A DNA stretch of 64,000 nucleotides, taken from the NCBI RefSeq assembly GCF_003334765.1, contig NZ_QOWT01000001.1; one strand, 5' to 3'. Below the pieces are notes generated by a model. That model was given only the letters and a program-made list of their open reading frames with translations. It did no database searches and was not told the DNA's origin. Source of the DNA: Escherichia coli. GTDB lineage: Bacteria; Pseudomonadota; Gammaproteobacteria; Enterobacterales; Enterobacteriaceae. Positions 42,456 to 45,538 of the stretch are shown one piece after another. Made by a program: the position numbers and the translations under genes. Each line of letters starts with the position of its first letter. Within the stretch, counting starts at the first letter, position 1.

Positions 42456-43277
42456 TTATTTTTGCGACAGTTGATCCAGCTTGTCGCGAAAACCGGTAAC
42501 AGAAATGGCCCGGTTATCGGCGCGCCAGCGATCTTTCGCGGCAGGAGCCGAACTTTGCACCCCAATTAATTGCCAGCCGTCATCGGTATGCAACATCAGA
42601 GGCGAACCGCTGTCACCCGGCAAGGTATCGCACTGATGTGACATCACCGACGTTTGCGCCCAGCCAGTCACTTCACAGTTTTGATGACTGTACAACGTAT
42701 CGAGATGATCTTCAGGGTAGCCTGCCTGAGTCACTTTACGACCTGCCGCTTTTAATGCGGCGGTAAGCGCGGCTTTATCTCCCTCAAATAACGGCAACGG
42801 CGTAATGCCAGAAGGGGGATTACGTAGCACAATCAATCCGAAGTCCCACGGCGCGGCTGCGGGAGGTACAATCCAACCATCCCCATCTGCTTTTAACCGC
42901 TTTCCCAGTGTCGGATCAACGCGGCCTTCTATGTCGTGGATCTCATAGCGCCAAAGACCTTTATTTGACACAAAACGCAGCGCCACTGCTTTATCGGCTT
43001 TACCCTTTGGAGGTGTCAATAAACAGTGTCCTGCCGTTAATGCCAGATTGGGTGCAATCAGCGTCGCCGTACATAAATTGCCGCTGGCCGTTTCCAGTTG
43101 CCCAACCGCATCCCACGGTGATTGGGTCGTGTCATTCACTGGCACACGATCATCATGACCAAAAAACAGGGTGCTGACCTCATCGTTTGCCGATCTGGCA
43201 ACGTCTGGTTTATCTGCAAACACAAAAGCAGACGTCAAACTAATTGCACCCAACACTACAGCAATGGTTGTACGCAT
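42456..43277 (-). CDS. ydgD: secreted trypsin-like serine protease (S1 family)
   Basis: 273 aa, signal peptide, catalytic-triad motifs TAGHC and GDSGSPL. Confidence 0.9.
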
Positions 43278-43376
43278 ATCACACTCTGGTGGGTAATTAT
43301 GATTATTAAAAGCAAACCCTCATAAATACTATAGACGGGACGGGATGAAAGTGGGAGTAAAATCAGATAACTACAA

Positions 43377-43460
43377 TCAGGAAAGATAAAAACGGGCGGC
43401 AATCAGTGCGCATAAAATAAGGATGATCAGAATGAACTCAAAGCGATAACGGCCCACCAT
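43377..43460 (-). CDS. ydgU: small hydrophobic protein YdgU (27 aa)
   Basis: Hand-translated from the minus strand: MVGRYRFEFILIILILCALIAARFYLS; not in the supplied ORF track because of its size. Confidence 0.6.
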   Translation of the reverse strand: MVGRYRFEFILIILILCALIAARFYLS

Positions 43461-43552
43461 ACTACCCTCCGCTAAAGGCGGTGCTAAACGTTACCCGCTT
43501 AGCACCGTAATTTTCAGGCGCGAGGGGGCGCGCCAGCATTACTGTTGAAAAC

Positions 43553-43861
43553 TTACGCTGCGGGTTGTGCAGCAGGTTTTGCCGGTTGCTGATGGCTGTG
43601 TTTCTTGGCGTGTTTCTTCGCTGCCTGCGCTTTTTGTTCAGGGGCTTTCTGTTCAGCTTTCGTATTTTTATGATGCTTTTTAGCCGCCTGCGCTTTCTGG
43701 GCAGGTGCTGCTTTATGCTGTTTTTTATGATGTGTAGTTTTCGCCGGCGCTGCTTTGGTGGTCGTCGCAGTCGGAGCAGGTGTGGTCGTAGTCTCTGCAG
43801 CAAAGGCGGCAGAAGACAGACCCATAGCAGCGGCAACAACCAGAGCTAATACTTTTTTCAT
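43553..43861 (-). CDS. asr: acid shock protein Asr
   Basis: ORF track gives 111 aa; trimmed to [21 protein letters not shown]... (102 aa); signal peptide then Lys/Ala/His/Gln-rich repeats. Confidence 0.88.
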
Positions 43862-44284
43862 TGTCATACCCTCAATTTGTTTTTTCATTTAACCCCACTG
43901 CGGGGCCGTTGAAATAACTATATCCCTGGGAATGGCAGACTTCCGTGAGTGGTTGGTTTCAGCGTGTAACGATATGTACAAACGCTGAATAAATTACAGC
44001 GTTGATAATAACGTATTGTGACTTAAGGGAAATTTAGCTACCAATAATAGTAGTCTTGATCGGGTTAACTATTTTACTACTTACAAAGCAGTAGAATAAC
44101 TGCGCATCAGTAATAAATGACACACAGCAAAATGAATCCGTTTATTTGGGTACTTATAATCCTGATGACGCTAGACGCGCTGCGGGAATTGGCTGGCGCT
44201 TCGTCTATTTTAGGATGGCTATTAACGTTGGTTTGAGCTGGCAATAAGTCCGGACGGGTATTTACCGCAGTCCGGACTTATTTT

Positions 44285-45538
44285 TCAGGCGTGCAGACGA
44301 CGATGCAAACGCGTCCCGACCAGCAGAGCAATGACCAGCATCAGAGCAATAAATGCGCCGACGCCGTTCCAGCCATAGTTATGCCAGAAAACACCACCCA
44401 GCGTCCCGGCAATACTCGACCCCAGATAGTAACTGAACAGATACAGCGAGGAGGCCTGGCCTTTAGCGCGTTTTGCGCGGGGGCCGATCCAGCTGCTGGC
44501 TACTGAGTGGGCTGCGAAGAATCCTGCTGAGAAGAGTAACATTCCGGCAAAGATCAGCCACAGCGAGCTGAATAAGGTCATCAGTAAACCAAACAGCATA
44601 ACCCCCGTCGAAAACAACATCACTGGACCACGCCCATAGCGGGTGGTCATGGTTCCGGCTTTGGGTGAGCTCCATGTACCGGTCAAATAAGCCAGCGATA
44701 ATAAGCCAACCACGGCCTGACTGACATGCCAGGGGGAGAGCATCAACCGATAGCCGATGTAATTAAACAGCGTGACGAACGACCCCATCAGCAAAAAGCC
44801 TTCTGCGAACAATAACGGTAATCCCCGGTCACGCCAGTGCAGACGAAAGTTGATAAACAACGTCTTAGGGCGCAGCGAAGTCGGGCGAAAATGGCGTGAT
44901 TCAGGGAGGATTTTCCAGAACATCAACGCCGAGGCCAGCGCGAAACAACCGATTGCCGCCAGAGCAATTCGCCAGTTGAAAAAGTCCGTGAAGACACCGC
45001 TAATTAAGCGTCCGCTCATGCCGCCAATTGAGTTGCCGCTGATATACAACCCCATTGAAAAGGCCACGAAACTGGGATGGATTTCCTCGCTAAGATAAGT
45101 CATGCCAACAGCTGCCACGCCACTTAACGAAAGCCCAATCAAGGCGCGCATAATCAAAATGCCGTGCCAGCTGGTCATCATTGTCGAAAGTAACGTACAA
45201 ATGGAGGCCAACAGTAGCGCCGTGACCATCACTGGTTTGCGACCAATGGCATCGGATAGCGGGCCAGTAAACAGCAAACCAATAGCCAACATCGCCGTGG
45301 AAATGGACAGTGAAATACTACTGTTCGCGGGGGTTAAGCCAAACTCCTGCGAAAGCACCGGAAGGATAGGCTGCACACAATAGAGAAGTGCAAATGTTGC
45401 CAGTCCGGCAGAGAACAGCGCCAGGGTGACGCGCATAAATTGCGGCGTACCGCGTTTAATAAATTGATTTGGCTGAGAAATGCTTTGCTTGTCAGTGTCG
45501 CTTGCCGGAGCGCCATCAACAGTTGTAGTACGGCTCAC
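44285..45538 (-). CDS. ynfM: MFS transporter YnfM
   Basis: 417 aa, 12 TM segments, MFS motif GPLSDAIGRKP. Confidence 0.88.
   Translation of the reverse strand: MSRTTTVDGAPASDTDKQSISQPNQFIKRGTPQFMRVTLALFSAGLATFALLYCVQPILPVLSQEFGLTPANSSISLSISTAMLAIGLLFTGPLSDAIGRKPVMVTALLLASICTLLSTMMTSWHGILIMRALIGLSLSGVAAVGMTYLSEEIHPSFVAFSMGLYISGNSIGGMSGRLISGVFTDFFNWRIALAAIGCFALASALMFWKILPESRHFRPTSLRPKTLFINFRLHWRDRGLPLLFAEGFLLMGSFVTLFNYIGYRLMLSPWHVSQAVVGLLSLAYLTGTWSSPKAGTMTTRYGRGPVMLFSTGVMLFGLLMTLFSSLWLIFAGMLLFSAGFFAAHSVASSWIGPRAKRAKGQASSLYLFSYYLGSSIAGTLGGVFWHNYGWNGVGAFIALMLVIALLVGTRLHRRLHA

Follow-up and report, generated by a model that had tools for sequence, protein, structure and literature searches.

Amino acid and codon composition keeps two alternative reading frames open across the acid-shock gene asr of Escherichia coli

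Spurious long open reading frames (ORFs) in the alternative frames of real genes, known as shadow ORFs, are a familiar artifact of gene prediction and are usually discussed for GC-rich genomes. Embedded and antisense overlapping genes have also been reported in Escherichia coli, on the strength of expression and phenotype data. Here, we describe two long ORFs that overlap the acid-shock gene asr within a 64,000-nucleotide stretch of E. coli DNA (NCBI RefSeq assembly GCF_003334765.1, contig NZ_QOWT01000001.1), referred to below as the window. They share with shadow ORFs their length, the overlap with a real gene, the lack of coding statistics, and the fact that they were called as genes in older annotations. 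However, the asr case arises in a genome of ca. 50% GC, from a local shortage of T within a low-complexity gene in which two frames are stop-proof. With the overlapping genes reported in E. coli, they have in common a long embedded ORF, but the asr ORFs were negative in evolutionary tests. We conclude that both are almost certainly artifacts, compositional by-products of the genuine asr gene.

The Asr protein is located in the periplasm (PMC10746267, PMC13425233). In these two papers, asr is described as acid induced in an RstA/PhoB-dependent manner, with periplasmic processing of its product to an 8-kDa form. The same papers, drawing on Seputiene 2003 and Ren 2022, present Asr as an intrinsically disordered protein of the periplasm with a positive charge, which is needed at acid pH, helps to maintain the integrity of the outer membrane, and, depending on the client, either promotes aggregation or prevents it. 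Together with samT (ydgU), asr forms a single RstA-dependent operon, in which SamT binds RstB and exerts negative feedback in acid, while Asr provides positive feedback on the asr-samT/RstBA system at neutral pH (PMC13425233). In Ribo-seq data obtained at pH 4.4, ca. 2% of the total reads fell on asr, with ydgU as the most induced small ORF (Schumacher et al. 2023); the word “asr” is missing from the supplementary file of 18 new small ORF candidates in that study. The picture of Asr drawn in the literature is that of an intrinsically disordered chaperone (“aggregase”) of the periplasm, whose massive induction at low pH proceeds through RstBA (and PhoBR). A literature search combining asr with overlapping-gene, antisense, and ribosome-profiling terms found no paper.

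The elements of the locus on which the analysis turns are the following.

43553..43861, minus strand: asr, 102 codons and a stop, encoding the acid-resistance repetitive basic protein (ORF list, NF033636, PF06392, RefSeq)
43377..43460, minus strand: samT (ydgU), encoding a membrane peptide of 27 aa, 92 nt beyond the end of asr (RefSeq coding sequence, sequence)
43462..43839, minus strand: +1-frame ORF over asr, 125 aa from a TTG start, artifactual (ORF list, frame arithmetic)
43565..43849, plus strand: in-register antisense ORF over asr, 94 aa from a TTG start, artifactual (ORF list, frame arithmetic)

The identity of asr was clear from several sources. Its product scored 102 bits against NCBIfam NF033636 (“acid resistance repetitive basic protein Asr”; cutoff, 50) over residues 1 to 100 and matched Pfam PF06392 with an E value of 5.6e-12 over residues 22 to 102. 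The RefSeq coding sequence WP_001340364.1 corresponds to asr here, with the same 309-nt extent, and the MG1655 counterpart is b1597 (1671376-1671684, also 309 nt). The 851 bases around asr were found in 5,423 of 5,426 complete E. coli genomes, and asr was the sole annotated feature over its own bases in the records inspected (37 of the 5,423 RefSeq records plus one full feature table). The RefSeq gene order is mdtJI, ydgD, ydgU/samT (27 aa), asr, a 34-aa “KPN_01571 family” ORF, and ynfM. E. coli K-12 Asr (b1597) has the same extent, the same neighbors ydgD, ydgU/samT, and ynfM, and the same repeat motif, with no substantive difference in asr; in K-12 derivatives such as NEB5-alpha, the asr coding sequence is identical to that of the window. 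The samT gene does differ from that of MG1655, in which SamT carries T at position 21 (...LITARFYLS), while the window version has A (...LIAARFYLS). The locus is thus the well-known acid-shock gene asr, whose biology is already known, and the finding is correct but ordinary.

Two observations concern the surroundings of the gene. An IS1 element is inserted inside the 851-bp asr/ydgU neighborhood in NZ_CM173843.1, NZ_CP027118.1, NZ_CP037910.1, and NZ_AP027759.1 and is absent from the window. Between asr and ynfM, at 44132..44236 on the plus strand, lies a hydrophobic ORF of 34 aa, MNPFIWVLIILMTLDALRELAGASSILGWLLTLV, which some RefSeq genomes annotate as “KPN_01571 family protein” (WP_001351109.1).

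The protein itself is unusual in composition and can be divided as follows.

43799..43861, minus strand: predicted Sec signal peptide, residues 1 to 21, cleavage motif AFA/AE (by inspection of the sequence)
43733..43798, minus strand: Thr/Ala/Pro-rich N-terminal segment of mature Asr, residues 22 to 43, outside the basic repeat (sequence)
43583..43708, minus strand: two 63-nt (21-aa) basic repeat copies with QKAQAAKKH, residues 52 to 72 and 73 to 93 (direct-repeat families D1 to D3, self-match)

The precursor encoded by asr has 102 aa, beginning with the Sec signal peptide and followed by a very basic mature part of 81 aa. The signal peptide pattern MKKVLAL...AFA/A[ED] was judged by eye to be conserved in 102 complete homologues among the matches listed. 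Mature Asr uses only nine residue types (A23, K17, T11, Q9, P8, H8, E3, N1, and S1), none of them hydrophobic, and has a net charge of ca. +14, rising to ca. +22 with His protonated. Its entropy was 2.72 bits, versus 3.90 ± 0.15 bits for pieces of this length taken from the window's other proteins, and none of 5,000 such pieces was as low. The earlier designation of the gene as asr, encoding a low-complexity secreted protein, is therefore well founded in the NF033636 and PF06392 matches, the entropy value, and the presence of a signal peptide. Its description as Lys/Ala/His/Gln rich captured the low complexity but needs refinement, as His and Gln are matched in abundance by Thr and Pro.

With regard to the repeats, the exact 9-mer QKAQAAKKH occurs twice in Asr, a result reached by none of 1,000 shuffles, and a protein self-comparison at an offset of 21 showed agreement at 11 of 12 positions between copies of the 21-aa unit. 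A partial, more degenerate copy lies 5′ of the pair at 43583..43708. The 63-nt unit was detected by the direct-repeat search and by the protein self-comparison and not by Tandem Repeats Finder, whose output over asr was limited to a weak 12-nt array at 43593..43623. The motif AQAAKKH[HA]K, of which the first-pass annotation had the whole mature protein consist, is real and occurs exactly twice (residues 57 and 78), each time as part of the 21-aa unit. That wording was nevertheless slightly overstated, since neither residues 22 to 43 nor the 10-residue C-terminal tail are copies of the basic repeat.

The limits of asr were also examined at the level of translation and transcription signals, with the following features in and around the gene.

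43869..43873, minus strand: Shine-Dalgarno sequence GAGGG, 7 nt 5′ of the ATG (43861) of the 102-aa version (sequence)
43891..43907, minus strand: invariant leader GGCCCCGCAGTGGGGTT (upstream-region conservation)
43917..43922, minus strand: conserved block TATAGT (14-genus alignment)
43965..43980, minus strand: conserved block GTACAnnnnGTTACA, RstA-box-like (14-genus alignment)
43556..43574, minus strand: terminator-like hairpin over the asr stop codon (consensus scan only; 3 sites versus 1.5 expected, not significant alone)

The ORF list extends the asr frame to an upstream ATG at 43888 (43553..43888, 111 aa). Among the matches listed, an SD-like tetramer at the matching spacing was present in all 102 complete homologues, while the upstream ATG of the 111-aa version was retained in just 17 of the 102, and for these reasons we take the 102-aa start to be the correct one. 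Mutational proof of the 102-aa Asr precursor was reportedly provided by Seputiene et al. in 2003. The region upstream of the gene (43862..43980, minus strand) was strikingly conserved across Enterobacteriaceae in an alignment of 14 genera. Besides the blocks given above, GGCCCCGCAGTGGGG in the asr leader and TCACTCACGGAA in the upstream region were conserved. By its resemblance to the consensus, GTACAnnnnGTTACA is a putative RstA box, and TATAGT a putative −10 element. A σ70 consensus scan found no asr promoter, which fits an activator-dependent promoter. The hairpin of the asr 5′ untranslated region/leader is conserved, yet its stability was not unusual (z = −0.31), and Rfam gave no match within 43000..44500 at an E value of ≤1.

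Superimposed on this gene are the two additional long ORFs, which the first-pass annotation had placed at 43462..43839 on the minus strand and 43565..43849 on the plus strand, both exactly where we found them. The conceptual product of the +1 ORF is rich in Arg, Lys, and Leu, and that of the antisense ORF is rich in Phe, Arg, Leu, and Cys. The +1 ORF extends 91 nt beyond the asr stop and ends in a TAG (43464..43462) located one base ahead of the samT ATG (43460). The remaining three frames over asr contain 3 to 6 stops, which can be formed from T at codon position 1 or 3. In order to compare the three overlapping frames, as had been suggested in the first-pass annotation, we scored codon usage in bits per codon against the genes of the window. 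Only asr scored as coding, with a log-likelihood of +0.24 (reference genes, 0.30 ± 0.09), versus −0.41 for the +1 ORF and −0.25 for the antisense ORF. The CAI-like score of the +1 ORF was 0.45, versus 0.72 for real genes. Both alternative ORFs start with TTG and have no SD-like sequence upstream. Homology was equally one-sided: NCBIfam and Pfam matched the asr frame alone, and neither alternative translation had a family match in either collection, in Pfam even at an E value of 10. In a collection of 15 billion proteins, neither ORF had an exact counterpart, nor did Asr itself at 102 or 111 aa, and as Asr was the positive control, this result is uninformative.

The reason why these two frames stay open can be found in the composition of the gene. 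The mature part of asr contains 7.4% T, none of it at codon position 2, and is devoid of TTA, CTA, and TCA codons; mature Asr has no Leu, and its single Ser is encoded by AGC. In the +1 frame, TAA, TAG, or TGA can begin only at codon position 2 of asr, so that its T has to come from a codon for Val, Leu, Ile, Met, or Phe; mature Asr contains none of these residues, and the frame is forced open. Similarly, in-register antisense stops can arise only opposite TTA, CTA, or TCA (Leu or Ser) in the sense strand, and the lack of these codons forces the antisense frame open as well. When the codon order of the mature part was shuffled so that the repeats were destroyed, both frames remained open in 100% of 5,000 trials. 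Redrawing of the synonymous codons left 80 codons or more open in every trial (100%) for the +1 frame and in 95.5% for the antisense frame. Over the whole mature part of asr, both frames are thus forced open regardless of codon order.

To put these values into perspective, we used as a baseline the 103-codon in-frame pieces of the 33 long genes of the window. Among these ordinary genes, 90 open codons were reached in the +1 frame by 1.9% of the pieces and in the in-register antisense frame by 15%, and two alternative frames were open over at least 90 of the 103 codons in 2.6%. The openness at asr is not a matter of chance, because it is forced by the codon set of Asr. The first-pass annotation had attributed the additional ORFs to the repetitive DNA, an explanation that does not hold, as both frames were always open after the repeats had been shuffled away. 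The cause of the open frames is the amino acid and codon composition and not the repetition.

Next to the mechanism, the comparison with other species provides an evolutionary view of the three frames. A scan with the motif QKAQAAKKH, back-translated and run against a single genome for each species, recovered at least 120 loci (L002 to L121). Among the matches listed, asr-type loci were spread over the Enterobacterales, with at least four in Chromobacterium, and carried from one to six or more QKAQAAKKH copies per locus. In a crude pattern search, at least 40 of the 101 homologue loci among the matches listed had a samT-like ORF 3′ of asr. The Chromobacterium homologues (L040, L084, L106, and L111), from a betaproteobacterium, are His rich. 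Also among the matches listed, two Asr paralogues per genome were often found (Rahnella, Yersinia, Serratia, Cedecea, and Enterobacter sp. Ag1). Several draft assemblies are broken within the asr repeats (e.g., L047, L049, L066, L074, L089, and L109).

At the level of substitutions, 267 of 358 differences fell at codon position 3 of asr in 15 pairs among the matches listed. The pN/pS ratio in these pairs, which were of equal length with 80 to 99% DNA identity and are few and not phylogenetically independent, was 0.12 for asr, whereas purifying selection in their own frame was found for neither the +1 ORF (1.98) nor the antisense ORF (1.38). Together, the negative codon log-likelihoods, these ratios, and the lack of family matches bear out the earlier view that neither ORF should be annotated. 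Within Escherichia pairs, the pN/pS ratio of asr was 0.20 to 0.25, versus 0.03 to 0.08 for ydgD and ynfM, indicating a weaker constraint on the Asr protein, as is expected of a disordered, low-complexity protein.

The antisense ORF could be considered a real embedded gene, the frame of which has been maintained open across the Enterobacterales. At first sight, the stop-free antisense frame in 82 of 101 homologues among the matches listed resembles conservation. However, the scarcity of Leu and Ser alone, calculated from the counts of both residues with ordinary codon usage, predicts 85.1 ± 3.4 open homologues among those same matches, so that nothing keeps the antisense frame open beyond the neutral expectation. 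A genuine overlapping gene in either alternative frame should also leave a trace in the silent sites of asr, and these were not unusually conserved: the silent divergence (pS) from two other Escherichia lineages was 0.21 and 0.34 for asr and 0.25 and 0.35 for the adjacent ydgD, values similar enough to indicate no hidden constraint on the synonymous sites of asr. Out of 5.8 billion protein clusters, only three matched the antisense ORF, all of them short, and in two (P0002 and P0003), stretches from different antisense frames are joined, so that indels in the assemblies are their probable origin. Adding to this the pN/pS ratio, the codon score, and the TTG start without an SD, together with the lack of any family match, we consider an embedded antisense gene extremely improbable, and the antisense ORF is better understood as a by-product of asr composition.

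The +1 frame gave a different picture. Among the matches listed, it was closed within the mature part in 90 of the 101 complete homologues, with 1 to 9 stops (median, 2), and open in just 11, so that here, too, openness was not conserved beyond what is expected neutrally. The frame is closed in most homologues because some Val is present in them, and GTA or GTG followed by A creates a stop.

The databases contain entries that would seem to speak for a genuine second protein within asr, encoded by the +1 ORF and annotated as such in CFT073. We obtained 24 matches to this ORF, and all the named or near-identical ones came from E. coli. Two of them, a “Putative acid shock protein” of CFT073 and a “conserved hypothetical protein” of B185, are deposited as 125-aa proteins that match it over the full length at 95 to 98% identity, and the +1 frame is also open in the Escherichia lineages L042 and L094. 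Homologues of an alternative frame, which the first-pass annotation had named as a finding that would speak against its reading, do therefore formally exist. However, both entries are mis-annotations of the same locus, bare annotations without experimental support, so that they do not indicate a gene. A second protein is very improbable on the other counts as well: the frame has been closed in most homologues, its pN/pS ratio and codon scores are not those of a gene, its TTG has no SD, no family matches it, no such coding sequence appears in the 38 RefSeq rows inspected, and its openness is forced by the composition of Asr. The artifactual origin of the +1 ORF thus remains the reading we adopt, and neither alternative frame is probably translated to a functional product; that they are not expressed is inferred from the evidence given above.

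The other +1 matches were chimeras, mostly of 127 to 141 aa, that begin as Asr, change to the +1 frame, and end with the TAG at 43464..43462. Those of 132 and 141 aa come from draft and metagenome gene calls (P0006 to P0027), and several are named “Asr.” Most chimeras switch at ...TTHHK/NSIKQ, which corresponds to the loss of one A from a run of six.

43721..43726, minus strand: A6 run, Lys46-Lys47, main switch point of the “Asr” chimeras (chimera sequences)

None of 5,422 complete E. coli genomes was matched exactly by a query with the corresponding A5 allele. The chimeras seem to stem from homopolymer errors or from rare mutations present in draft and metagenome assemblies, and they appear intact because the +1 frame is open.

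These chimeras could also be viewed in the light of ribosomal or transcriptional slippage. If it took place at low frequency at the A6/A5 runs of asr, an Asr-(+1) fusion would result, and ribosomes would be brought across the spacer to the beginning of samT, tuning the Asr:SamT ratio within the RstBA feedback. The position of the +1 stop, one base from the samT ATG in the window, the switch of the public 132/141-aa gene calls at the A6 run, and the extremely high translation of asr in acid would all be compatible with such a scheme. However, the juxtaposition of stop and start is not conserved; in L042 and L094, the +1 frame extends into samT, ending 115 nt beyond the asr stop, and in most homologues, as shown above, it is closed. 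Besides, samT has its own canonical SD, no +1 frameshift signal was recognizable in asr, and the lack of the A5 allele in complete genomes suggests that the chimeras stem from draft data errors or rare mutations. We find regulatory slippage hardly credible for these reasons. Translational coupling between the +1 ORF and samT was considered and rejected, since the stop/start adjacency is not conserved in other Escherichia lineages. The explanation by composition accounts for the open +1 frame into which the chimeras run.

The implications of the asr case are of a general kind. If a product has no hydrophobic residues, stops in the +1 frame are impossible, and if it has no Leu or Ser, stops in the in-register antisense frame are impossible; at such loci, the length of an ORF is therefore worthless as evidence of a gene. 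Moreover, the open +1 frame masks frameshifts from pseudogene detection, as one-base deletions in the A runs give longer, intact-looking ORFs of 132 or 141 aa, some of which carry the name “Asr” instead of a frameshift flag. The practical value of these results lies in annotation, and the biology of Asr stays as it is known.
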